Shown one piece after another: positions 5,565 to 28,833 of a DNA stretch of 28,864 nucleotides; positions within the stretch are counted from its first letter, which is position 1; each line of letters begins with the position of its first letter. The position numbers were made by a program, and so were the translations under genes. Origin of the DNA: a virus. Its lineage: Duplodnaviria > Caudoviricetes. The notes beneath the pieces are model-generated. The model was not told the DNA's origin. It searched no databases and saw only the letters and a program-made list of their open reading frames with translations. The stretch lies in the IMG/VR virus record IMGVR_UViG_3300032260_000019, positions 1-28,864 of that record, one strand, 5' to 3'.

Positions 5565-5801
5565 CTAGCTGTCCTCGCCTTTGAGGGATGCAAGGATGTC
5601 TTCGAGTTCGCTCGCGTAATGCTTCATGTCGCCGACGTATCCCCAGCTGCGTGAGTTGGCGGCCTGGCTTGCGCGATGGCCCTTGATTGCGGCGCCGACA
5701 TCCTTGAGGAGTTTCTCGACCCGGTCGGCCTCGCGGTTGTAGACCTCGGAGGCGCTCTTCGATTTGGGCTTGGTGGCTATGGCTGCTTTGCGCGTCGTCA
5801 T
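5565..5801 (-). CDS. Hypothetical helical protein (78 aa), leaderless
   Basis: MTTRKAA...SWGYVGDM; starts 6 nt after the -10 box of P3. Confidence 0.8.
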   Translation of the reverse strand: MTTRKAAIATKPKSKSASEVYNREADRVEKLLKDVGAAIKGHRASQAANSRSWGYVGDMKHYASELEDILASLKGEDS

Positions 5802-5807
5802 GAATCA

Positions 5808-5836
5808 ACCCTACCTCCGGGTCCCCGTACCGTCAA
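5808..5836 (-). promoter_or_regulatory. Leaderless promoter P3
   Basis: TTGACG(5836-5831)-17 bp-TAGGGT(5813-5808)-6 nt-ATG(5801). Confidence 0.8.
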
Positions 5837-5866
5837 CGGGAAAGTGCGAGAAATCGTACTTTACCG
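5837..5866. promoter_or_regulatory. Operator-like palindrome at P3
   Basis: CGGGAAAGTGCG-AGAAAT-CGTACTTTACCG. Confidence 0.7.
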
Positions 5867-6030
5867 CAAGCCCCCCGTATTGCCCCAGGATTCCCGCAGT
5901 GGCTCGGCCGGGCGAATATGCGCCCACGGCGCCCACGGCGGAACGGTGGGCGCCTGGTCCCGCCAGCGCCGGCCTGGCGGCGGCGGCCGCGGGGCCGCCA
6001 GTTTGCCCCAGGACATGGCGTGCAATACGG

Positions 6031-10751: not shown

Positions 10752-11092
10752 GCCACTTTGGCTTCTTCACTTCCGTCGCTTACTAGAACTCCGCCGCGCA
10801 GATATGCGATGTACATCCTGTCTCCGTGGATGGCTGAGATTATTCTTCCTCCGAGGACTTTGCACTGGGATGTTTTGAGTGCCTTGAGTACGCGAGTGAT
10901 CATCCCTTTGTTGCATTCGCTGTCGTCGACTTCATATCCGCGTTGCCGGCTGGCCTCGATGCGATGCGCAGGGTTGTAGGAATGTTTTCCGGCGCAGCCG
11001 CAGCAGCACCGGTCGGGCTTGCCTGAGTATACGCTTTGCACGTCGCCGTTCGTGAGTGCTGCGATTGTTTTCGTTGTTGCGGTCATCGTCAT
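10748..11092 (-). CDS. Hypothetical protein with CCCGCAG motif (114 aa)
   Basis: GGAGG RBS; VYSGKPDRCCCGCAGKH. Confidence 0.75.
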   Translation of the reverse strand: MTMTATTKTIAALTNGDVQSVYSGKPDRCCCGCAGKHSYNPAHRIEASRQRGYEVDDSECNKGMITRVLKALKTSQCKVLGGRIISAIHGDRMYIAYLRGGVLVSDGSEEAKVA

Positions 11093-11100
11093 TGCCTCCG

Positions 11101-11544
11101 TTAGTAGCTAGCGCAGACCGGGCCGATTCCGGTCTCGATGGATTGCGGTACGGTGAGTGCGCGGCCGCAGCGGCCGCAGCGGCCTTCGTGCCAGATTTCT
11201 ACATTGGTGGGGAGTTCGCCGTTGGCGATGCGCTTCCAGCACCAGGCGAATGCCCGCGCGCTGGGGGCGTCTTCGCCGAAGGGGCTGCGCCTTCCGTGGC
11301 GGTAGTTGGTCTCTTCGAAGATCGTCCCAAGGAATGTGTAATCGTCCGGGGCCGAAAGGACTGACACAAAGTGCAGGACCTTCATTTCTTCCGCATTGTT
11401 GGATGGTACGAATTCGCCCTTGGTGACGCGGTAGGTGAAGCGCGTGCCTGTCACTTTTGAGACCAGGGTTATCGTAGCCTTGCCTGCCAGGACAAATGCC
11501 TTCGCCTGGTCTCCGCTTTCTAGTCGGTGCCTGTTCTTCGCCAT
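11101..11544 (-). CDS. DUF6011-like zinc-finger protein, leaderless
   Basis: C-terminal CGRCGRALTVPQSIETGIGPVCA; starts 6 nt after the -10 box of P4. Confidence 0.8.
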   Translation of the reverse strand: MAKNRHRLESGDQAKAFVLAGKATITLVSKVTGTRFTYRVTKGEFVPSNNAEEMKVLHFVSVLSAPDDYTFLGTIFEETNYRHGRRSPFGEDAPSARAFAWCWKRIANGELPTNVEIWHEGRCGRCGRALTVPQSIETGIGPVCASY

Positions 11545-11550
11545 GAATCC

Positions 11551-11579
11551 AATCTACCTCCGGCCGGCCCGGCCGTCAA
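11551..11579 (-). promoter_or_regulatory. Leaderless promoter P4
   Basis: TTGACG(11579-11574)-17 bp-TAGATT(11556-11551)-6 nt-ATG(11544). Confidence 0.8.
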
Positions 11580-11609
11580 CGGGAAAGTGCGCAAAATCGT
11601 ACTTTCCCG
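11580..11609. promoter_or_regulatory. Operator-like palindrome at P4
   Basis: CGGGAAAGTGCG-CAAAAT-CGTACTTTCCCG, 11/12 symmetric. Confidence 0.75.
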
Positions 11610-11733
11610 GCAAGCCCGGTGTGTGCCCGTATTTCGGCCGGTGGCGCCTGGCCCTCCCCGTGGCTGGGGGCGGCGGCCGCGGCCGCCCACGGCCGGAGTG
11701 CGGCGCGACAGCCGGGCGTGTTACCTTGACTTG

Positions 11734-11958
11734 GTGGACGGAGATCGGACGGCGACGGAGCACCCGCTCGACGGGTGCAGGGGCGAGATGCTCAAGCGAG
11801 CCCGTGCAGCCGAAGATCCCGACCAGGGAACGACGGCGCGCGAAGCCCTTGTGGCCCTGCTCGAAGGTGAGCAGGGGATATGCGCCCGTGATTCAATCAG
11901 GATTGCACACGCATGGCTGAACAACAGGCAGACTCCGACCGGGTATCGTGCGAAGTAG
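11734..11958 (+). CDS. Hypothetical protein (74 aa), possibly leaderless
   Basis: GTG 6 nt after an extended -10-like TGnTACCTT (11719-11727); no good -35. Confidence 0.4.
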   Translation: MDGDRTATEHPLDGCRGEMLKRARAAEDPDQGTTAREALVALLEGEQGICARDSIRIAHAWLNNRQTPTGYRAK

Positions 11959-12185
11959 TCGATCGCGAAGTAGTCGATCGCAGATCGTGTTGCCCGCGGT
12001 TTGATGGAATTCAGATGTTTGCCGCCACGAAGGCGCGCGAGCGGGAAAAGCTGGGGGAGACGATCTCAGCGTGGATGGCGAAGAATCGGCATCTAGTCCC
12101 TGTCGATCGGACCGTTACCCAGTCATCTGACAATGAATTTCATTGCGTGACCGTCACCCTGTTCTGGCGCAAAGGGGTCATCTAG
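11913..12185 (+). CDS. Small conserved hypothetical protein, Myxococcota-like
   Basis: FAATKAREREKLGETISAW...QSSDNEFHCVTVTLFW resembles a small myxobacterial family (from memory); start uncertain. Confidence 0.7.
   Translation: MAEQQADSDRVSCEVVDREVVDRRSCCPRFDGIQMFAATKAREREKLGETISAWMAKNRHLVPVDRTVTQSSDNEFHCVTVTLFWRKGVI
11951..11980 (+). repeat. 15-bp tandem duplication
   Basis: CGAAGTAGTCGATCG x2. Confidence 0.9.
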
Positions 12186-12230
12186 TCGCGTGACCTATGG
12201 CCTCGTTTCGAGACAGGCTTAAGGCGCGAA

Positions 12231-12304
12231 GAGCCGCGGGAACGGAATCGCCATCAGCTGCAGCCGTTTCCGGCCGGGGGGACAGCGCTCCGAACCCGCG
12301 GCTC
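12231..12304 (-). other. Long imperfect hairpin with GAAA tetraloop, 3' of the recombinase
   Basis: GAGCCGCGGG/CCCGCGGCTC outer stem, CGGA/TCCG, CGCTGTC/GATGGCG (G-U pairs on the minus strand), GGCCG-GAAA-CGGCT. Confidence 0.6.
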
Positions 12305-12313
12305 GATCCGAAT

Positions 12314-12928
12314 CTAGCACGGGAGGGTTCGGACGGCGGAGAAGATATCGTCGTCGCTGGGCCCGGCGTAGATAGTCGTGGTGTTGAGATTCTTGTGTCG
12401 GGCGACGCGCTGGGTGAGCCGGATGTCCCCGGTGGCCCGGTAGACGTTGGTCAGGGCGGTGTGCCGCAGCTGGTGGAACGTGAAGCGTCGGTCGAGGCCA
12501 GCGCGGTCCTGCCAGTTGCAGAAGGTGCGGCGGACTTGTCTGGTGCAGAGTCGGCCACCAAGCCGGCTGACGAACAGGGGGGAGTCGACGTCGAGCCCCT
12601 CGCCGTTGCGTCGCTTCCAGGACATGAACCGCTTCATCTTGAAGACGAGGCTGTCAGGGAGGAAGACGGTCTGGGGGGCGGGGCGACCGCCACACCGTTT
12701 GAAGACGCGCAGCTCGATGCGTCTACGGACGCGCCCGGTGCCGTCGAAGAAATCGCCGACGTTCAGGGCGACGATCTCCATCTCACGCAGCCCGGTGCCG
12801 AGGGCGAGGGCGAACAGGACGTGGTCGCGGAATCCGCGGACATGCTCGCCTGTGACGCGGAGAAGCCGGGCTTGCTCGGCGACGGTCATGGTGGTGGGGG
12901 GACGTCGAATCCCGTCGATGTAGCTCAT
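12314..12928 (-). CDS. Tyrosine recombinase, catalytic domain only (204 aa)
   Basis: [14 protein letters not shown] (VFKR), HQLRH, H (ARH), Y (TTTIY); AGGAGG RBS 6 nt upstream of ATG 12928. Confidence 0.93.
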
Positions 12929-13009
12929 GATTTGCCTCCTGGGTCCACGTTCGCGTTGGAAGGGGACGGAAGTCAACGCGAGATCTGGCAACTTAAAGAA
13001 AGCCCGCTG

Positions 13010-14473
13010 GTGACTACCCCGGCTGGGGTAACGCGCACACCGCTAGTTGTTGTCAAGCGTGACGAGAATGACTTCGCTGACTGGCTGTCGACGGAGACAG
13101 GGTTCCTTCTGGGGCTTGCGCAGTTTGGAGACGAAGACCTCAGCCTGGAGCCTTACCAGATCGCGTTCATGCGATGTAAGTCAGACTATCGATGCGTTGA
13201 GAAGTCGCGCCAGGTCGGATACAGCTTGCTGTTTGCGTGCGAGGCGATTGCGCGCACGCACCTGCGGGAAACGCACAACAGTATTTTCGTCTCGTACAAC
13301 CTCGCAGATTCGAAAGAGAAGATTGCGTACGCGGCACAGCTACACGAAGAGCTTCCTCTCGAATACCAGAAGAAGAAGGTCGTTGATTCGAAGACAGAGC
13401 TTGGCTTCAGGTCGAATAGTTCGAACAAGCGCGTAAGCCGAATCATTTCGAACCCGTCCCGTGCGCCGCGCGGAAAGAAGGGGGATATCTACCTCGACGA
13501 GCTTGCTCACTACGCGAACGATCGCGAAGTGTACAAGGGGTCTACCGCACTGATTCTTCGCGCCAAAGGGCAGCTGACAGTGTGCTCTTCTCCGCTGGGT
13601 CGACGCGGCCAGTTCTGGGAGATAGCCAGGCAAGAGATCAGCAAGTTTGGATCCTACTGGCGCCAAGCAGTTCCGTGGTGGCTGTGTAGCTTCTTCTGCA
13701 CGAACGTTCCGCTTGCAGCAATTGAGGCACCGAAGCTATCGACCAAGGAACGCGTTCAAAAGTTCGGCAAGAAAGGAATCCTTTCTCAGTTCGAATCGCT
13801 TTCGATGGAAGATTTTCAGCAGGAGTTCGAAGTTCTCTACGTCGATGAGTCGATGTCGTTCTTTCCGTACGAACTGATCTTGGGATGCACGAACGACGAA
13901 CACGAGACCGTCGATGACTTCACGAAAGTGCCAACGGTCAATCGACTGGTTGCCGGATTCGACGTTGGTCGCAAGAAGGACTTCTCCGAGCTTTCGATCT
14001 TTGAACAGCTCGACGACGGTCGGCATGTCTCACGCCTGTTCATGCGATTCGACAAGGTCCCGTTCCGAGTCCAGAAGAACACGCTACAAAGGATGATGAA
14101 CCTGCTTCCGGTTGCACGACTGTCGATCGACCAGAACGGTCTCGGGATGCAGATGGCGGAGGATCTTGCAGAGGACTATCCGCAGGTTGAGCCGTGCGTG
14201 CTGTCGGGGCCAAGCAAGGAACTGTGGCTTACCGATTTCAAGATCCTGCTACAGCAGCAGAAGCTGGTATTGCCGCGCAACCGCGAGTTGATTTCTCAGA
14301 TTCATAGCATCCGAAAACGCATCACCCCAGCCGGCCGGCCGATCTTCGAAACCAACGACACTTCGAGTGGCGAGGGGCATGCTGATAGGCTCTGGTCGTG
14401 CGTCCTTGCGTGTAAGAAGGAGCGCATGGCTCCTGCGCAGGCCGCGCAGGTCGAGGTGAGGATCCTCGGCTAG
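13010..14473 (+). CDS. terL: Terminase large subunit (frame is open upstream to ATG 12197)
   Basis: LEPYQ adenine-binding motif, EKSRQVGYS Walker A variant, IYLDE Walker B, CSSPLG, nuclease [10 protein letters not shown] and HADRLWS; GTG 13010 chosen as start but uncertain. Confidence 0.9.
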
Positions 14474-14505
14474 GTGTCAGCCGACTGGACTAGGATGGCC
14501 GAACG

Positions 14506-14772
14506 ATGATTATCCCGGTGAAGGTCTACGAGGTTGGCAGGGCTACGCCAAGCGAGAAGCCGAGGTTCGTGCGCGACTTCAAGATCGTCGCGCCCAGCAT
14601 AGATGCGTGTCGCAGGCTAGTGAAGGACAAGATCACGGGCGAAGGGTACGCGGTGCGTGCGCTGTCTGTATCGCCTGACCCGAAACCAGTCGGGTCCATC
14701 CTGGTCTACGTGTGGACAAAGGACGTTTCAGCGTTACGGCGTGCCCCGTCGCGACGACGTCACCGGAGGTAA
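14506..14772 (+). CDS. Hypothetical basic protein (88 aa)
   Basis: ORF between terL and portal; its 3' end supplies the GGAGG RBS of the portal. Confidence 0.7.
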   Translation: MIIPVKVYEVGRATPSEKPRFVRDFKIVAPSIDACRRLVKDKITGEGYAVRALSVSPDPKPVGSILVYVWTKDVSALRRAPSRRRHRR

Positions 14773-14775
14773 TCA

Positions 14776-16731
14776 GTGTCCGAACGGCAGATAACGACAG
14801 ATCCAAACGAGCCGCGCAATATCCGGGAAGACCTGGAGAGCATGAAGCCGGTCATCAAGGCACACATCATCTCGCAAGATCGTGTGCAGGCAACGAACGT
14901 TGTTTCCACGGACGAGGAGAGGGCGTTCGCGTCCGCTGGCGCACTGGAGCCTCCATTCGATCCGCAGACGTTGTGCGTGCTGTTCGGGCACAGCAATAGT
15001 CTGCGCCAGAACATCGACGCGTACGAGGTCAACATTGACGGATTCGGGCATCGGTTCGAACCGGTGATCAACCTGGACAGTGACGACGCGAACGAGCAGA
15101 TTCGCGACGCATTATTTCTCGACAGGATTAGCGATCTGGAAACAGACGACGCCGACGATGATGCGATGGACTCGCTTGCAGAGCAGTACATGCCAAGCGA
15201 TTCAGACGTTGAGAAACGCAAGAAGTCTCTGGTCGCACAGATTCGTTTGGAGAAGGCAAAGCTGCAGAACTTTTTTGATTTCTGCTGCATGAACGTGTCG
15301 TTCGTGAAGCTGCGAAAGCAGACCAGGCAGGACATCGAGGTGACTGGCAACGGGTACTGGGAGGTGTTGCGCAATGGACGTGACGAGGTCGCGCAATTCA
15401 CCTACATGCCTGCGTTCTCGATGCGCCTCGTTCCATTGGACCCGGATGCAATACCTGTGAAGCAGAAGGTCCGTGTCTCTCCATTCACGTTCAAAACGAT
15501 GGAGATGCGCAGACGCTTTCGGCGTTACGTTCAGGTGTTCCAGGACGACGTCATCTTCTTCAAGGAGTTCGGGGACCCGCGCGTCATCTCAAAAAAGGAC
15601 GGCCGGGTCATCACAGAGGAAGAGAAGGATGACTTCGATGCGCAGACAGAGGCGGGCGCCGACGGTCCGGCGACTGAGGTCTGGCACTGGTTCCTGCACA
15701 ACCCAGAGTCTGCGTACGGAACGCCGCGCTGGATGGGGAACCTTCTATCTGTTCTCGGATCGCGCCAGTCCGAAGAGGTCAACTTTCTGTACTTCGACAA
15801 TAAGGGGGTTCCGCCCCTCGCGCTGTTGATCTCGGGGGGGAAGCTCTCGACGCAGTCCGTGGACCGCGTCAGCGACTTCATCGAGAACAACATCAAGGGC
15901 AGGAAGAACTTTCACTCGATCATGGTCATCGAGGCAGAGGCAGCGTCGTCGAAGGCGACAGCCGACAGCGCTGGGAAGATCAGGATCGACCTCAAGCCGC
16001 TGACAGCCGCACAGCACAACGACGCGCTGTTCCAGAAATACGACGAGCGAAACATTGACAAAGTCGGGATGGCGTTCCGGCTGCCTCGAATGCTTCGTGG
16101 CGACATCCGAGACTTCAATCGTTCCACGGCGGATGCTGCGCTGGCGTTCGCGGAGATGCAGGTGTTCCAGCCGGAACGCCAGGACTTTGACTTTTCAGTG
16201 AACCGGCAGCTGCTACTGAACGAGATGGGCATCAGGTTCTGGCGGTTTGTCTCGAACGCCCCGGTGACGCGCGACCCAGAGGTCGTCGCCAAGATGATCA
16301 AGGACCTAATGAACGCAAATGCGTTCACCGCGATCGACGTGCGCCCGCTCCTGGAAGAGGTGTTCAATCGCGAGTTCCGCACCCTCCAGGCGGACTGGGC
16401 CAAGCAGCCTGTCCCGCTGACGCTTGCCGGCATCCCGCTAGATGGGGATGCAGGCAAGGGGGACATGACCGGCGGGGACCTTGCCGGCGCAGGCCGGCGG
16501 GCCCCGAGCCAGGACTCCAGCAGGATGGATGGTCCGTTCCGCGGCCGCCGCCGCCGCCGCAAGAGTGAGATCGACGAAATCCTAGAGGACCTGTCACTGG
16601 ACGAGCAGGTGACATTCATGCTGAAGCTCAGGGAGAGGCTGGAAAAGGCTGAAGTGGCCCGCGCCGAGGAAGAACACCTGGCCGCCCGCACCGACGCTGC
16701 GGCGCTGGCAGCAAAAAGCAAAGATGTGTGA
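14776..16731 (+). CDS. Portal protein, PBSX-like
   Basis: DIEVTGNGYWEVLRN, YGTPRW, NFLYFDNKGVP, AFRLPRMLRG, FNRSTA; position after terL. Confidence 0.9.
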   Translation: MSERQITTDPNEPRNIREDLESMKPVIKAHIISQDRVQATNVVSTDEERAFASAGALEPPFDPQTLCVLFGHSNSLRQNIDAYEVNIDGFGHRFEPVINLDSDDANEQIRDALFLDRISDLETDDADDDAMDSLAEQYMPSDSDVEKRKKSLVAQIRLEKAKLQNFFDFCCMNVSFVKLRKQTRQDIEVTGNGYWEVLRNGRDEVAQFTYMPAFSMRLVPLDPDAIPVKQKVRVSPFTFKTMEMRRRFRRYVQVFQDDVIFFKEFGDPRVISKKDGRVITEEEKDDFDAQTEAGADGPATEVWHWFLHNPESAYGTPRWMGNLLSVLGSRQSEEVNFLYFDNKGVPPLALLISGGKLSTQSVDRVSDFIENNIKGRKNFHSIMVIEAEAASSKATADSAGKIRIDLKPLTAAQHNDALFQKYDERNIDKVGMAFRLPRMLRGDIRDFNRSTADAALAFAEMQVFQPERQDFDFSVNRQLLLNEMGIRFWRFVSNAPVTRDPEVVAKMIKDLMNANAFTAIDVRPLLEEVFNREFRTLQADWAKQPVPLTLAGIPLDGDAGKGDMTGGDLAGAGRRAPSQDSSRMDGPFRGRRRRRKSEIDEILEDLSLDEQVTFMLKLRERLEKAEVARAEEEHLAARTDAAALAAKSKDV

Positions 16732-18145: not shown

Positions 18146-18874
18146 ATGGAGACCCAACAGGTATTCGAGAAACTGACTGACGCCTGCCGGCGCGTTCTGA
18201 AGAGCCAGGGATCTCCTGCCTCGATCGAGACGCGTACGATGACCCTCGACCAGTTCGCAGAGTATGCGATGGACGAGATCAATAAAGCCGACGGCGAGAA
18301 GTCCTCTCCGCGCGCAGCCCTGGCTCGCATCCAGCACCTGCACAGCACGATCGCGGTGGCGAAGTCTGCGTTCACGTCTGCCGAGCTGGAGTCTTTCGAC
18401 ATTCCGGTATTCAAGGCCGGTGCGTCCATCTCGATGTCCGATGTCGAGACCCGGTTCGAGGGCCTGGAGAAGCAGGTGAGCGCGCTCGTCGGCTCCCTCG
18501 GCAAGGGCAAGGCCGACGAAGAGGACGAGAAGGCCAAGGCCAAGGGCAAGGCCGACGACGAGGACGAGACCGAGAAGGCCAAGGCCAAGGCCAAGGGCAA
18601 GGCCGACGACGAGGACGAGACCGAGAAGGCCAAGGCCGAAGAGGAAGAGGACGACAAGAAGAATCCGTTCAAGGGCAAGGCCGGCGACGAGGACGAGGAC
18701 GAGGACGAGAAGGCCAAGAAGGCCAAAGAGGAAGAGGACGAGAAGGCCAAGGCCAAGGGAAAGGCCGACGACAAGGACGAGACCGAGAAGGCCGCATGGC
18801 CGCAGGATCTCGCGAAGTGCGGCAACGTCAAGCGCGACGCTGACCTGTACGACTGGGGCCGAGACCCGGAGTAG
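18146..18874 (+). CDS. K/A/D/E-repeat scaffold-like or internal head protein (242 aa)
   Basis: AGGAG RBS; repeated KGKADDEDETEKAKA; C-terminal AWPQDL. Confidence 0.8.
   Translation: METQQVFEKLTDACRRVLKSQGSPASIETRTMTLDQFAEYAMDEINKADGEKSSPRAALARIQHLHSTIAVAKSAFTSAELESFDIPVFKAGASISMSDVETRFEGLEKQVSALVGSLGKGKADEEDEKAKAKGKADDEDETEKAKAKAKGKADDEDETEKAKAEEEEDDKKNPFKGKAGDEDEDEDEKAKKAKEEEDEKAKAKGKADDKDETEKAAWPQDLAKCGNVKRDADLYDWGRDPE
18500..18793 (+). repeat. Intragenic imperfect tandem repeats
   Basis: Units such as GGCAAGGCCGACGACGAGGACGAGACCGAGAAGGCCAAGGCCAAG; coding strand almost T-free. Confidence 0.9.
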
Positions 18875-18900: not shown

Positions 18901-21900
18901 GTGAGCTTCTTCGAAATGTCACAAAAGCCCGACAGTATGACCGAGGTCGAGAAGACCGTATGGGGTTCTCCTGCGGGTAAAAAGCGGCTTTCGAAGAAGC
19001 TCGCTGCGATGATTCCGTCTGGATACACGACTTATGTCGAGCCATTCGCTGGTAGCGCGGCAGTCTTCTTCGCGCTTGAACAGGTCGATACCGAGGTCCT
19101 GAACGATATGGACCCGGAGATCGCATTCGCCTTCAAGGCGATCGCGACACTGTCCGATGCCGAGATGAAGTCTCTTGGCAAGAAGTCATGGACGGGGAAC
19201 AAAGAGACATACAAGAAGCTGTACACGCAGTGGAGGTCGGGCAAGAGCCTCGGCAAGGTCGACCGCCTGCACAGGTTTTTGTACCTGTCCCATTTCTCGT
19301 TTGGGAAGCTACGCAGCGGCAGCTTCAACGGCAACGCCGACGGCATCGTCGCGCAAACGCCTGGCAAGGTGGACCGCGCCCGCGAGCGCCTTAGCGGCGT
19401 CAAGGTGCACAGCGAGGACTACCGCAAGGTCTGCAGCAAGTACGACGGAACGAAGACGTTCTTCTTTCTCGATCCTCCGTATGTTGGTTCGGATGCGCTG
19501 AACAGGACGTCGCGAGAAGGCGGCGGAACAAATACTGGCGAGAAGTCGTTCAACGAAGAAGATTTCTATAAGTTCCTGAAGGGCCTCAAGGGCAAGTTCC
19601 TGATCACATACGGCGTGACCGGCAAGACAGATTGGCCCGGATTTCACGTCTCAAGGATTACGAGCCCCAGGTCGATCGCGTCCATGCCTGGCGTCAAGGG
19701 GCCAAAGACCCTGACGCACCTACTGATCTCGAACTACAAGATCAGCAAGGCTGACATCGCCAAGGCGGTCGGAGACGACTGGACGATCGAACCGGTCGTG
19801 AAGGGGTTCCCAGGCGGAGAGGCCAGCGCCGGCCTGCACATGCACGCGCTCGACCGAGAGGCCCGTAGCACAAAGCTGGACGGCACGCACTCGCACACGT
19901 TCGTGTCACTGGACGGCAAGGCTGTAGTCACCGAGGAGGACGGGCAGCACTTACACGGGATCAGCTGCTACGACGGCGGCGCCACACACATCACTCACGA
20001 CGGTGAGCACATTCACCACCTGAAGTTGCCAGGCGGAGTGACGTTGCGGACCGAGGTCGGTGGGTACCACGGACATGATGTCCATACTGAGACGACGGGA
20101 TTCGATGGGACACACGTCCACAAGCTGGTTCTTCCAGACGGATCTATCGTTGAAAGTCTGGACGCCGACGGGGAGTGGCGTCGCGCCGGGAAGCCAGTAT
20201 TGGCAGCCGGAACGCCGGCAGCCAGTTCGATCGCGACATCGAAGCAGGCCGGACTTGCCGGGGCCCTACGCAACTTCACGCTGCGTGCCCCGTTCCTGGT
20301 TCTGTCCGATGGCGACCTGTACGTGCGCACTGATGGAATCAAGAAGGCCGTCGAGGCTGCGATAGCAGACATGCTTCCGGCGGACGTCGCTGCGACTGTT
20401 CGAGTGATAGAAGGGGAGCCCCCGTCGCATTACGTCGAGGCCGCAGACCTGAGTGTTCAGGTTCGCGAAAAGATGGTCGCCAAGCATGCGGTCGACAAGG
20501 CTGCCGGCGACGCGCCAGAGATGCCAGACGTCCTGACGTGGGATGCGGTCTGGTCCGGGCGAATGCCTCCAGATGGCGAGTCGGGGCTGCCGGCGTTCCT
20601 GGAGAAGCAGGTCCCTGGACGCTTCCGCTACTGGAAGGCTGAAGGAGATCGCGCCTGCGAGGTTCGAGACGCGCTGATGGATAGCGCGCCTGACATCAGG
20701 ATGGTCAACGGCCAGCCGACGCTTGTCACCGTGCAGATGTCGGTGTTCAGCCCATCCGCCGGGGAAGAGGCGCTGGCCAAGCGCGCAGACTTCGTTCACC
20801 AGGTTGCGCGCATCATGAAGGACACCCAGCAAGGTGTTCTGTGGACGCTGAACGAGTTCCCGAACGCAAAGCTTGAAGACGGCCAGGTGCTGGTGATTGC
20901 GGCCGACGTCGCAGACCTCTGGTCATCCAGCGGAGAGTCGATGGATTCTCTGGTGCGCAAGGTTGCCGACCTGAAGCACGGGTGGATCCTCCCCCTACGC
21001 GATTCCGTTGGCGCGCGCGCCGCGCTATCCAGGGTCGGAACCACGTTCCTGATTCGCAAGTCTGCGACCATGGGATGGGTGTTCGGGACGAACGTGGATG
21101 TGGCCAAGGCGCAGGTTGAGATCGTCGAGCTACCGTCAATCGGTGATACACGACGAGAGTTCACGCTGTCGCGCCAGGTGTGGAAGTCCGGGAAGCAATC
21201 GGTCTGGCATTTGATGATTGACAGGCCTGAAGAAGGTCTGGAGGCATGGGTCCTTCAGGGCGACCCGGTCGAGAAGGGGTGCGTCGGGATCCAGAAGGAC
21301 GTCGCCGAAAAGGCGATGCTCGACTTCCAGGGCGATATCGACGACGGCGAGATATGGATCGAGGACCGCGGGACCGTCTCTGTTACGGATCGATGCGACG
21401 GCGTGTGCAAGCTGCGCATTGACGGCACGAAGCTGCGCGGGGATTTTGTTCTGACCGGTCGCGGCACAGGGTCGATCTGGAAGCTGGAACATGCTTCCAG
21501 GCCAGCGGCCGCTGGCGAAGCAGGTCTTCAGGAAGTGACCAAGAGCTACGACGTCTCGAAGCTTGTGATTGCCGAAAAGGCCAAGGACGAACGGTTCGTT
21601 TACGGCATCGTCCTGGAGCCAGAGACCGTCGATTCCCAGGGGGACATCTACTCTGAGGAATCCGTCCGGGTCGCTGCGCACAAGTTCATGGCTGAGTTCC
21701 AGAACATCGGGATCCAGCACTCCGAACTTGCCAAGCAGGTCGATATCCTTGAATCGTTTCTGGCACCTACATCGTTCTCCGAGGGTGGCAAGGACGTCAA
21801 AAAAGGGACGTGGCTACTGGCGGTTCGGGTCAAGTCTGCAACCCTATGGGCTGACATCAAGGCCGGGAAGTTCACCGGGTTCTCCATTGGCGGAACAGCA

Positions 21901-21924
21901 ATGCGCCGCCCGGAGAAGTCGTAA
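18901..21924 (+). CDS. Multidomain fusion: Dam/D12-class N6-adenine methyltransferase, HxH repeats, unknown domain(s), degenerate LigD phosphoesterase-like domain, XkdF-like prohead protease
   Basis: GSPAGKK, YVEPFAGSAAV (motif I), LND, FFFLDPPY (motif IV); six GxHxH; DFQGDI...DRGT...KLRGDFVL; VYGIVLEPETVDSQGD...QH...KKGTW...IKAGKFTGFSIGG; alternative ATGs at 18916 and 18937. Confidence 0.88.
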   Translation: MSFFEMSQKPDSMTEVEKTVWGSPAGKKRLSKKLAAMIPSGYTTYVEPFAGSAAVFFALEQVDTEVLNDMDPEIAFAFKAIATLSDAEMKSLGKKSWTGNKETYKKLYTQWRSGKSLGKVDRLHRFLYLSHFSFGKLRSGSFNGNADGIVAQTPGKVDRARERLSGVKVHSEDYRKVCSKYDGTKTFFFLDPPYVGSDALNRTSREGGGTNTGEKSFNEEDFYKFLKGLKGKFLITYGVTGKTDWPGFHVSRITSPRSIASMPGVKGPKTLTHLLISNYKISKADIAKAVGDDWTIEPVVKGFPGGEASAGLHMHALDREARSTKLDGTHSHTFVSLDGKAVVTEEDGQHLHGISCYDGGATHITHDGEHIHHLKLPGGVTLRTEVGGYHGHDVHTETTGFDGTHVHKLVLPDGSIVESLDADGEWRRAGKPVLAAGTPAASSIATSKQAGLAGALRNFTLRAPFLVLSDGDLYVRTDGIKKAVEAAIADMLPADVAATVRVIEGEPPSHYVEAADLSVQVREKMVAKHAVDKAAGDAPEMPDVLTWDAVWSGRMPPDGESGLPAFLEKQVPGRFRYWKAEGDRACEVRDALMDSAPDIRMVNGQPTLVTVQMSVFSPSAGEEALAKRADFVHQVARIMKDTQQGVLWTLNEFPNAKLEDGQVLVIAADVADLWSSSGESMDSLVRKVADLKHGWILPLRDSVGARAALSRVGTTFLIRKSATMGWVFGTNVDVAKAQVEIVELPSIGDTRREFTLSRQVWKSGKQSVWHLMIDRPEEGLEAWVLQGDPVEKGCVGIQKDVAEKAMLDFQGDIDDGEIWIEDRGTVSVTDRCDGVCKLRIDGTKLRGDFVLTGRGTGSIWKLEHASRPAAAGEAGLQEVTKSYDVSKLVIAEKAKDERFVYGIVLEPETVDSQGDIYSEESVRVAAHKFMAEFQNIGIQHSELAKQVDILESFLAPTSFSEGGKDVKKGTWLLAVRVKSATLWADIKAGKFTGFSIGGTAMRRPEKS

Positions 21925-26498: not shown

Positions 26499-28607
26499 TT
26501 AGAACGGTGGTTTGTTCTCGTCGGGCATGGCCCGGACCCGATCCCAGTAGCGCTTCGTGAGCGTGCGCGCCGCATCCCATTGGGCGTCGGTCAGGCCCCC
26601 GGCAGCTGCCTCGGCGAGCCGATCCCCCAGGGGGGCGTCGTCGGGTAGGAAGTTCCCAGCCAGCTTGCGGAGCGCGGCGGCGGCCCACTCCTCGGCGGGA
26701 TGGATCGGCCCCCGGCGGTTGGCAGCCTTCACCGGCGCACAGGGCGGCGCAGGCCGTCCGTTCTTGGCCTGGCGGCGGCCGGCGGCCGCGGTAGATTCCG
26801 TGGCCCCCTGCAGGGCTGTGGCGGCCTCGGACAGGATGGCTACGACGTCTGGGAGCTTCTCGCCAGGCTTTATCCGACTGGCGTGGATTGACTCGTTGGT
26901 GAGTTGCTGCTTGCCGGCCAGGGTGGCGCTGACCATCTGGTCGAGCTTGTGGTCGGCGACCAGGCGGGTCACCTGAACGCCGCGGTCCTGGCCGATACGG
27001 CAGCAGCGATCCTCGGCTTGCGCGTTCAGGTCCGGGACCCAGGCCAGGTCGACGAACAGCATCTGGCTGGCCTTGGTCAGGGTGAGGGCGGTACCCATTG
27101 CCTGGATTGTTCCGCCGATTCCCTTCAGCGTACCGGCCTGGAACGCGTTCTCGATCCTGGTGCGTTCAGTGGCCGCAGTGTCCCCGGTGATTACAGCCCA
27201 GCCATCGCGGTGGGCAAGCGCGTCGATGGGCGCACGATGGGCGCTGAATACGACCAGCGGCTCGTCGATCTCTTCATGCTCAGCAGCAATCTGCAGCATG
27301 GCTGGAATCTTCGCGGTGGCTAGCGCCAGGCGCGCGGCGGACATCTCCTCGAATGCCGGGCCTCGCTGGCTGAAGAATGCAGCCTCGTTTACCGCATGGT
27401 CGAGGTCAATGCCTGCGGCTTCCAGCGCGGCCAGGGCTGCCTTGCAGAGCTTCTTTGTCGCGCCGTCGAGGCTATCGACCGTCATCTCCCGGTATGTTTT
27501 TGTGGGCAGGTCGGGCAGGACATCGCGCCGTTCGCGCCGGAGGCAGACGCGCTTTAGGAAGTCCGAAGCTGCCGGCGCTGGGTGCGTGCCCCATTCGATT
27601 CCGAAGCGGCCTTCCTTTCCGTTGAACAGGATCCTGAACCGGTCCCAGTCGCCAAAGGCTTCGCGCGCGATGTCGGCAGCCATCATGAGGGCCCAGAGTT
27701 CTGGCGGGCGGTTCAGCAGCGGGGACCCTGTGAGTAGCCAGGTCCTCCCGCCAGCCTCGCGAACCGTTGCAGCCATCGCGCGGTAGCGCTTGGTCCGCTG
27801 CGCCTTGTTGTTTTTCAGTGCGTGCGCCTCGTCGGCAATCATGATCGTTCCTGCCGGCGGGTCCGTTGGCTTGTCCTTCGGCAGGATGTCGTAGTTGGTG
27901 ATCACGATCTCGCCAGGCTTCGGCCAGCGAAAGCTTTGCCTCCCCTTCAGGATGTCGGTCGTGAACTCGGGGCGCCACTTGGCAGCCTCGCGTGCCCAAA
28001 CTCCCTTGGCGATTGCCGGCGCGACGACCAGGACGGGGGCGTTGGAGTCCAGCGCAGTCAGGGCCTGGACCGTTTTCCCGAGCCCCATCTCGTCGTCGAG
28101 GATTGCGCCAATACGATGGGACAGCCAGTTGACGCCGTCGACCTGGAACGGGTACAGCGCCTTCCCGTCTTCGGCCAGGGCGGTCTGGATTTTGCCGATC
28201 CTGTCCGCGGTGGTCGCGGCGGTCGCTGTCGCCTTGCGGGCTTGCGCTGCCATGGCGTCGGCTACATCGTCGGCTACCGATACCGCGAAGCCCAGACTCT
28301 TCAGCTCTTTGATTAGCTTGGGGATGGCCATGAAGGAGATCCGATTCCCCTCCCGCGCGCGGTCATAGCTGGCGCCAACGTCGGCGCAGGCTGTCCGGTA
28401 GTCGCCGAAGCGTTCGCGTCCGAGGAAGCCCTCCGGCCTGACAAACGGGAAGTCGTTCTCGATTACGACCCGAATGACCGGGACGGGCTCCTCGTTGCAG
28501 TCGTCGCAGAAGGTGGTCCAGCACCCACCTTCGTTCTGGACGTGTCCCTCCTCTGGGTCGACGCCGATTCCGCAGGTATTGCAGCGGCCCCTGTAGGTGT
28601 TACGCAT
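26499..28607 (-). CDS. SNF2-family (SMARCAL1/HARP-like) helicase/translocase, 702 aa
   Basis: LYPFQ, DDEMGLGKT, ADEAH, LLTGSP, QAEDRCCRIGQ; N-terminal CNTC...CDDC; GAGGAG RBS before MRNTYRG. Confidence 0.92.
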   Translation of the reverse strand: MRNTYRGRCNTCGIGVDPEEGHVQNEGGCWTTFCDDCNEEPVPVIRVVIENDFPFVRPEGFLGRERFGDYRTACADVGASYDRAREGNRISFMAIPKLIKELKSLGFAVSVADDVADAMAAQARKATATAATTADRIGKIQTALAEDGKALYPFQVDGVNWLSHRIGAILDDEMGLGKTVQALTALDSNAPVLVVAPAIAKGVWAREAAKWRPEFTTDILKGRQSFRWPKPGEIVITNYDILPKDKPTDPPAGTIMIADEAHALKNNKAQRTKRYRAMAATVREAGGRTWLLTGSPLLNRPPELWALMMAADIAREAFGDWDRFRILFNGKEGRFGIEWGTHPAPAASDFLKRVCLRRERRDVLPDLPTKTYREMTVDSLDGATKKLCKAALAALEAAGIDLDHAVNEAAFFSQRGPAFEEMSAARLALATAKIPAMLQIAAEHEEIDEPLVVFSAHRAPIDALAHRDGWAVITGDTAATERTRIENAFQAGTLKGIGGTIQAMGTALTLTKASQMLFVDLAWVPDLNAQAEDRCCRIGQDRGVQVTRLVADHKLDQMVSATLAGKQQLTNESIHASRIKPGEKLPDVVAILSEAATALQGATESTAAAGRRQAKNGRPAPPCAPVKAANRRGPIHPAEEWAAAALRKLAGNFLPDDAPLGDRLAEAAAGGLTDAQWDAARTLTKRYWDRVRAMPDENKPPF

Positions 28608-28833
28608 GGCTGAACTCCTCGTCGATGGCTTTGATTTCGTTCTCGAATGCCTGCGCCTCGACCATGCTGATGACTCGCTGCCCATGCCCGTCGCCGATAT
28701 CGACATAGCGGTATCCGCATTGCCGGCGGAGCATGATGCCGCGGGAGTCAGTCGGCTCGGAAGACATGGTCGTTCCGCTGCCGTGGTAGAAGGTCCAGGT
28801 GGTGCCGTTCGGGGTTTCGTTTTGCGTCGTCAT
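28600..28833 (-). CDS. Hypothetical protein (77 aa)
   Basis: MTTQN start like the leaderless genes; overlaps the helicase start. Confidence 0.7.
   Translation of the reverse strand: MTTQNETPNGTTWTFYHGSGTTMSSEPTDSRGIMLRRQCGYRYVDIGDGHGQRVISMVEAQAFENEIKAIDEEFSHA

Follow-up and report, generated by a model that had tools for sequence, protein, structure and literature searches.

In phage P1, the loxP site of the Cre recombinase lies near the packaging genes, and integration is not carried out by Cre. In Brevibacillus phage Emery (KC595516), gene 1, beside the terminase, encodes a tyrosine recombinase that the relevant part of its description calls an integrase (PMC4909266). Noncontiguous operons, in which an opposite-strand gene lies between co-directed genes, are described for the S. 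aureus men operon and for four cases in phage 80alpha; the passages devoted to them report that late transcription silences the antisense gene (PMC11034616). For eta of satellite phage P4, translation prevents termination and the late transcript reads through, according to the section on that system (PMC10111431), and the functionality of antisense frames is treated as an open question in the corresponding part of PMC7457138.

The stretch of DNA analysed here (the window, 28.9 kb) carries leftward small genes up to position 11544 and then a rightward head cluster encoding TerL, portal, head morphogenesis, methyltransferase-protease and capsid proteins. Both the recombinase ORF and the 758-aa frame ending as TerL, within which the first-pass annotation had placed it, are present (Table 1). 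On comparative sequence evidence, the locus is probably a conserved antisense recombinase gene in a packaging cluster, spanned by a stop-free frame that likely acts as a bridge for ribosomes; in the window, translation of TerL likely starts at ATG 12197, giving the protein an N-terminal extension of 283 residues that is probably unstructured.

Table 1. Features at and around the recombinase-terL overlap in the window.
Feature	Position	Strand	Basis or remark
56-aa ORF without assigned function	11788..11958	+	counterpart in the same place in L001
56-aa ORF without assigned function, directly upstream of the long frame	12015..12185	+	
Long frame of 758 aa, with TerL joined to a 283-codon antisense bridge	12197..14473	+	inferred terL gene
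39 codons before the recombinase stop	12197..12313	+	short predicted helix at start, M-x-S-F-x-x-L type
Tyrosine recombinase, 204 aa, catalytic domain only	12314..12928	-	PF00589, six catalytic residues intact, AlphaFold model
Spacer from recombinase ATG to TerL body; no stop in the TerL frame over its 39 codons	12929..13045	+	
Recombinase ribosome-binding site AGGAGG	12935..12940	-	sequence; -10.3 kcal/mol
TerL body (Terminase_6N + 6C)	13046..14473	+	family matches
Portal, start of the head cluster after terL	14776..16731	+	PF04860, phrog_12

Elsewhere in the window, an element made up of TTGAC, 18 nt, GGAGG and ATG precedes four leftward genes (415-490, 826-910, 5788-5880 and 11531-11620, minus strand), with a 12-6-12 palindrome upstream of two of its copies; it likely represents a phage early promoter and ribosome-binding-site family with an operator. 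The palindrome at 11580-11609 was considered as a recombination site and rejected, since it recurs at 5838-5865 as part of this element. An exact 15-bp tandem duplication (11950-11979) crosses the stop of ORF 11788-11958. Downstream, a 242-aa ORF with a lysine/alanine/acidic low-complexity repeat (18146-18874) stands just before the methyltransferase-protease gene, a 1007-aa ORF (18901-21924) combining an N6-adenine DNA methyltransferase (PF02086) with a C-terminal XkdF-type head protease (PF14550). An SNF2-type helicase is encoded on the opposite strand (26499-28706, minus), right after the head-tail connector genes. No Rfam match was found within 11000-15000.

The recombinase consists of a catalytic domain, with a PF00589 match spanning residues 14-189, and its residues R48, K77, H152, R155, H178 and Y187 are invariant among 52 aligned relatives. 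Its AGGAGG lies 6 nt upstream of ATG 12928 (anti-SD duplex, -10.3 kcal/mol). These observations confirm the earlier description of a complete R-K-HxxR-H-Y recombinase with its own ribosome-binding site. The AlphaFold model (pLDDT 90) is a bare catalytic domain, whose best Foldseek matches are the catalytic domains of XerA, XerH, integron integrase and Cre (TM ~0.7 over the query, identity at most 25%); the R-K-H-R-H/W-Y set and the catalytic-domain fold identify it as a tyrosine recombinase (PF00589). It resembles FimB and FimE (NF007370 and NF007371) in its size of ~200 aa, its restriction to the catalytic domain and its full catalytic set, but it scores 33 and 26.6 bits against their cut-offs of 222 and 221, and its position, next to terL, is fixed. 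Lacking a core-binding domain, it matches only the C-terminal part of the XerC, XerD and XerA models (56-80 bits versus 220-335). With P1 Cre and with XerA/XerC/XerD it shares the catalytic fold, one candidate palindrome per genome near the packaging genes and a separate integrating enzyme, whereas it differs from them in the missing core-binding domain, in identity (at most 25%) and in that its site and activity are putative. Emery, which has the closest cultured TerL (33.6% identity), likewise carries a tyrosine recombinase two genes upstream of the terminase, but that protein is 290 aa long, 21% identical and encoded on the terminase strand with no overlap. Passages of PMC5861418 and PMC8138268 offered no family of such size in which to place it.

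Read on the opposite strand, the recombinase stop TAG becomes codon 40 (CTA) of the long frame, which confirms the codon-to-codon register proposed for the two frames; the antisense overlap is complete, at 615 bp or 205 codons. Matches to the TerL family begin at residue 283 of the long frame. Within the window alone, the openness of the frame exceeds chance only moderately: given its own codon usage, the probability of no antisense stop is 0.084 for the recombinase itself, 0.37 for one flank and 0.26 for the other, and the capsid gene and ORF 21976 likewise have no in-register antisense stop. It is the comparative data on relatives that make the nesting non-random.

Relatives of the recombinase number at least 220; the 120 matches listed are 50-80% identical, and nearly all are ~204 aa long. 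A single-protein query of viral contigs gave no match, and an alignment-based search retrieved 27 viral loci, 10 of which were too distant to pass a filter of 40% identity. From the same search came 134 genome and 322 metagenome stretches, with the best 80 of each taken, and 164 distinct loci were left after identical or partial genes had been dropped, the contig of the window (L110) included. Record titles of the retrieved loci are mostly Myxococcota, and two loci (L066 and L070) are prophages of cultured myxobacteria. Searches of plasmids and GenBank phages returned distant recombinases only (at most 33% identity).

The link to the packaging operon that the first-pass annotation had inferred extends across the family. 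terL stands head-to-head with the recombinase in 131 of the 164 distinct loci, within 200 nt in 121 and farther away in 10. The remaining 33 comprise 16 with less than 1.5 kb upstream and 17 with more, one of the latter (L041) having a TerL match that begins at residue 34. When the search began from TerL, 42 of 401 GTDB genomes had a match, and the recombinase was present in 28 of the 30 loci returned; the other two have at most 215 nt of DNA upstream. Viral TerL relatives are accompanied by the recombinase in five of five cases at 55% identity or above and in none of five at 34-49%, and among loci with enough flanking DNA no family TerL (at least 55% identity) was found without it. As a separate observation, TerL matches in L236-L243 and similar loci of large myxobacterial genomes are broken into a part covering residues 2-265 and a second part covering the remainder, which suggests that the gene is split, or carries an insertion, around residue 265.

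On the packaging strand, most of 94 loci have a conserved gene 300-800 nt ahead of the recombinase. It is called terS-like because of where it lies, a weak helix-turn-helix signal and a single atlas neighbour (score 0.93) in which Terminase_5 is frequent, a lead rather than proof. The order terS-like (+), recombinase (-), terL (+) recurs in 89 loci of the coupled or fused types defined below. The clade of the window has no adjacent terS: none was found in the window, and in genome G005 terS lies 22 kb upstream.

Two arrangements of the recombinase and terL account for most loci. In the coupled type (87 loci), to which the prophages at L066 and L070 belong, TerL starts at a codon of its own that is preceded by a ribosome-binding site (median -9.0 kcal/mol). 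Spacers between the recombinase ATG and TerL come in 18 lengths, each a multiple of three. The antisense frame of these loci stops at -5 to +4 of the TerL start in 84 of the 87, at +1 (67), +4 (12), -2 (4) or -5 (1), and elsewhere in three; with an ATG-ACN start, the +1 stop is automatic once the frame is set. An earlier stop in the spacer occurs in none of the 87 loci in the bridge frame, versus 25 and 11 in the other two frames. The fused register comprises 32 loci, 31 of which, that of the window included, are open through the whole recombinase; the openness in homologues that had been proposed as a check is thus observed. In these 31, as in the window, Pro-Leu replaces the Met-Thr-Leu or Met-Leu that precedes the TerL body in coupled relatives. 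Shine-Dalgarno pairing at that position has a median of -2.35 kcal/mol, like coding controls, and eight of the spacers have no ATG, GTG or TTG, the other 23 having SD-less ones only. The exception, L047, is in the fused-type register but has a TerL start of its own; a further two loci, in the third frame, fall outside both types. The fused state is kept across 10 spacer lengths.

At the upstream end, the stop of the terS-like gene has an ATG or GTG within -25 to +10 in 55 of 68 loci of the coupled type (median SD energy -8.2 kcal/mol) and in 17 of 21 of the fused type (-8.6 kcal/mol). Between the terS-like gene and the recombinase, the bridge frame contains a stop in 7 of 82 loci, versus 67 and 70 for the other frames. 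In most relatives the antisense frame is retained as an ORF of its own, with coupling to both terS and terL. FastTree phylogenies place the fused loci in two clades of the TerL tree and in one group of the recombinase tree, where they are mixed with loci that have other DNA between the recombinase and terL (separated loci).

Codons that would create antisense stops (TCA, CTA and TTA) are strongly depleted in the recombinase. Taking as expectation the codon usage of each locus's own terL, with at least 300 aligned TerL residues, 6 are seen versus 54.5 expected in 76 coupled-type loci and 0 versus 12.9 in 21 fused-type loci, counts that are non-independent events because the loci share ancestry. 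Thinning to one locus per 80% cluster leaves 6 versus 28.7 (27 loci), and to one per 70% cluster 5 versus 14.6 (11 loci). The same statistic applied to terL itself gives 67 versus 70.4, and the other NNA codons CCA and GCA are not depleted in the coupled-type loci. The antisense stops occur in L099, L002 and L056, with four of the six in L099. Taken alone, the 84 of 87 open genes would be weak evidence, since GC3 is ~0.91 and most single loci expect fewer than one antisense stop.

Ten loci are separated. Five of them carry 1, 1, 1, 5 and 2 stops, 10 in all versus 9.6 expected; two of these stop-bearing loci have TATAAT ~45-55 nt ahead of terL, and two, L179 and L181, are near-identical. The other five have no stops, with only 1.5 expected; three of them carry an inserted forward ORF, coupled in turn to terL, which the frame either runs into or passes ribosomes to. 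Four further separated loci (L221, L236, L239 and L240), counted irrespective of orientation, also have no stops. The spacers of L060, L155 and L167 hold an inserted forward, cysteine-rich HNH-like ORF, with the coupling chain to terL kept, and L221 carries a tandem pair of recombinase-like ORFs upstream of terL (L221:214-1555).

These data bear on the possibility that the long frame is a shadow ORF, a by-product of GC-rich, in-register codons, with TerL starting divergently at GTG 13010 or at TTG 12932 or 12956. The rarity of antisense stops at high GC3 and the two other window genes without them fit such an account, as do the missing SD at ATG 12197 and the 508-550 aa assigned by gene callers to the nearest TerL relatives, P0122, P0123 and P0125. 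Against these stand stop counts 5-10-fold below the expectation of each locus, openness that is frame-specific in the non-coding flanks, a GTG 13010 that is neither conserved nor preceded by an SD, and the eight fused-type spacers that have no canonical start at all. We regard a shadow ORF as improbable.

For the TerL start in the window, the first-pass annotation had left open either a true nested pair or a start near GTG 13010, divergent from the recombinase. The first option is upheld by the 31 of 32 open loci of the fused register; the second is not. The three start codons of the spacer, TTG 12932, TTG 12956 and GTG 13010, all lack a ribosome-binding site. GTG 13010, 81 bp from the recombinase ATG, has an SD energy of only -1.0 kcal/mol, and P0122, the nearest relative, has no start-type residue at its position; it is probably not the TerL start. 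The recombinase promoter must sit on the minus strand of the same spacer.

ATG 12197 has no ribosome-binding site (+0.6 kcal/mol) and lies 11 nt past the stop of ORF 12015..12185, so that ribosomes would have to reach it by coupling across this gap. In L001, which together with the window makes up the two loci of this clade compared at the DNA level, a GTG lies 16 nt past the stop of the equivalent ORF (65% identical), and ORF 12015..12185 likely donates ribosomes to ATG 12197. Among nine long relatives aligned, the called start of seven lies past the recombinase stop by 30-50 codons, and in six of the seven a comparable short motif is present; the N-terminal helix motif M-x-S-F-x-x-L is common to most long forms of the clade. 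Of the 120 TerL relatives listed, 12 besides that of the window are called at 720-765 aa. Judged from these comparisons, a TerL start at ATG 12197 is somewhat favoured.

The antisense frame seems to matter as translation rather than as protein sequence. Four-fold third positions of the recombinase are first positions in the bridge, and divergence at these sites equals that of terL in every distance bin (0.23 versus 0.24 and 0.35 versus 0.34 in the closest), a comparison of 150 sampled, non-independent pairs per type in which the distant bins are near saturation. Because bridge residues are conserved no more than the recombinase forces, the frame is likely a ribosome bridge and not a folded domain. 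An alternative is that the extension is a functional TerL domain, or in coupled phages a separate protein, for example one replacing or binding TerS. The helix motif shared by the clade and the persistence of the fused state over 10 spacer lengths speak for it, but no added constraint is seen at recombinase-silent sites that alter the antisense residue, the part upstream of the recombinase varies from ~40 to more than 300 codons (with DNA motifs conserved there), and close relatives L004, L179 and L181 have a TerL with a short N-terminus of its own. The shift towards C-ending codons, which could have indicated selection on antisense peptide composition, is equally strong in the separated loci (10 of 10), and that explanation was rejected. 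With no Pfam, PHROG or atlas match in residues 1-283, a functional domain seems unlikely. The AlphaFold model of the fusion (13 rows, mean pLDDT 43) is poor in the ATPase domain too and hence does not speak for an unfolded extension. An intein with an antisense homing endonuclease was also considered and discarded, as residues 1-283 have no Pfam match, Hint/splicing domains included, and the extension is N-terminal, not an internal insertion.

Turning to the role of the recombinase, analogy with P1 Cre suggests that the enzyme, made from a promoter of its own, might act at a single site in each genome to resolve dimers or to circularise DNA on entry; we put this forward tentatively. The best candidate for its site is a 14-6-14 bp palindrome with a variable spacer, located just after terS, which scores at least 16 in 85 of 92 coupled or fused loci holding terS under a matrix built from the same loci. 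It has the shape of a tyrosine recombinase core site, occurs once per record in G007 and G008, and accompanies the recombinase in some copies that lack terS and terL. It is absent from the window, and in G005 it stays with terS and not with the recombinase, so it may instead be a TerS site. A G-run motif on the terS side of the recombinase presumably resembles cos regions. Contig ends within 600 nt are not enriched on that side (25 versus 22 of 164 loci) and lend no support to a genome terminus there.

The first-pass annotation had favoured an invertase or resolvase, and its invertase half is not supported. A FimB/FimE-like enzyme inverting DNA in or close to the packaging genes would suit the size and domain content of the protein, and one 28-bp inverted pair, 310 bp apart, is found in G005. 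The orientation of recombinase and terL is nevertheless identical in all 131 loci having both, the FimB/FimE-type models score 27-33 bits, far below cut-offs of 221, and neither the window nor the G001 prophage contains long inverted repeats; in G005, what lies between the paired repeats is an AT-rich gap with repeats, resembling an origin. The window, the G001 prophage and G005 yielded no invertible segment, and inversion seems unlikely. The gap itself (L200:19400-19900; G005 39.4-39.9 kb) is AT-rich and origin-like, with short repeats and the inverted pair ~310 bp apart. Contigs of one DNA run, possibly the one from which the window derives, showed no inversion or excision, their single joint, 11573-11609, being the repeated promoter element.

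Comparably unlikely is that the recombinase excises itself or the terS-terL segment to turn on late genes, or shuffles cargo cassettes beside its promoter. In its favour are copies without TerL that retain palindrome, recombinase and promoter but switch partner immediately past the upstream box of the promoter (L053, L055, L166 and L177; L128 and L129), and the RHS fragments that some carry. Yet no family TerL (at least 55% identity) is without the recombinase where enough DNA was available, the window has no flanking direct repeats, and such breakpoints can reflect selection keeping the promoter; with coupling at both ends, excision would also be unnecessary. The terL-less copies comprise L053, L055, L166, L177, L128, L129, L097, L101 and L106. 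Several of them keep the palindrome, an intact recombinase and the promoter; similarity between close pairs ends right past the upstream box of the promoter, where unrelated cargo begins. In L053 and L106 there are RHS-repeat fragments and, downstream of them, a small gene.

A phage integrase is the least probable role, very improbable indeed and already disfavoured at first pass: although the recombinase is the sole tyrosine recombinase, with no serine recombinase, in the 100-kb G005 (85% complete), and Emery gene 1 beside the terminase was named an integrase in the relevant part of PMC4909266, it lies in mid-prophage in G001, a serine recombinase lies 12-24 kb away in each of the five terL-linked prophages of G001-G004, and it is thus not found as the only integrating enzyme at an element end beside att. 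A 45-bp direct repeat and a second tyrosine recombinase near the G001 prophage were rejected as parts of this system; they belong to a separate tRNA-Asn island.

We propose that late transcripts would run from terS through the bridge to terL, that translation of the bridge would keep the message covered against premature termination, and that the bridge would hand ribosomes on to terL. Because such a transcript would be antisense to the recombinase message, expression of packaging genes and of the recombinase may exclude each other. The likeness to noncontiguous operons lies in the opposite-strand gene between co-directed genes, found here in 89 loci; the difference is that the antisense stretch there is described as transcribed, whereas here, as known from sequence, it is spanned by a selected open frame that is coupled at both ends or fused. 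With P4 eta/kil the locus shares a frame with upstream-coupling geometry (55 of 68 and 17 of 21 relatives; an 11-nt gap in the window), but eta covers a same-strand promoter, terminator and RNA, whereas this frame covers a whole conserved enzyme gene on the opposite strand and is coupled or fused to terL. Compared with either a noncontiguous operon or a read-through frame, the locus stands out because its frame extends over an entire enzyme gene and, in the lineage of the window, is joined to an essential protein. Searches of full-text, largely open-access literature found no description of the arrangement.

A fuller version of the proposal is more doubtful than its parts: TerL would truly be translated through the 205 overprinted codons, the recombinase would be active, and the two would form a switch in which early circularisation or resolution at the palindrome beside the packaging origin gives way to late bridge transcription, shutting the recombinase off as concatemers are needed.

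When long antisense overlaps turn up in GC-rich genomes, they are generally set aside as shadow ORFs. Here, a complete overlap of 615 bp, with internal controls, in more than 100 genomes and in coupled, fused and relaxed states, points to selection for translation without selection for sequence. On this reading, TerL would be mis-started by gene callers throughout the family, and the minimal tyrosine recombinases encoded at such loci form a widespread family with a link to DNA packaging.
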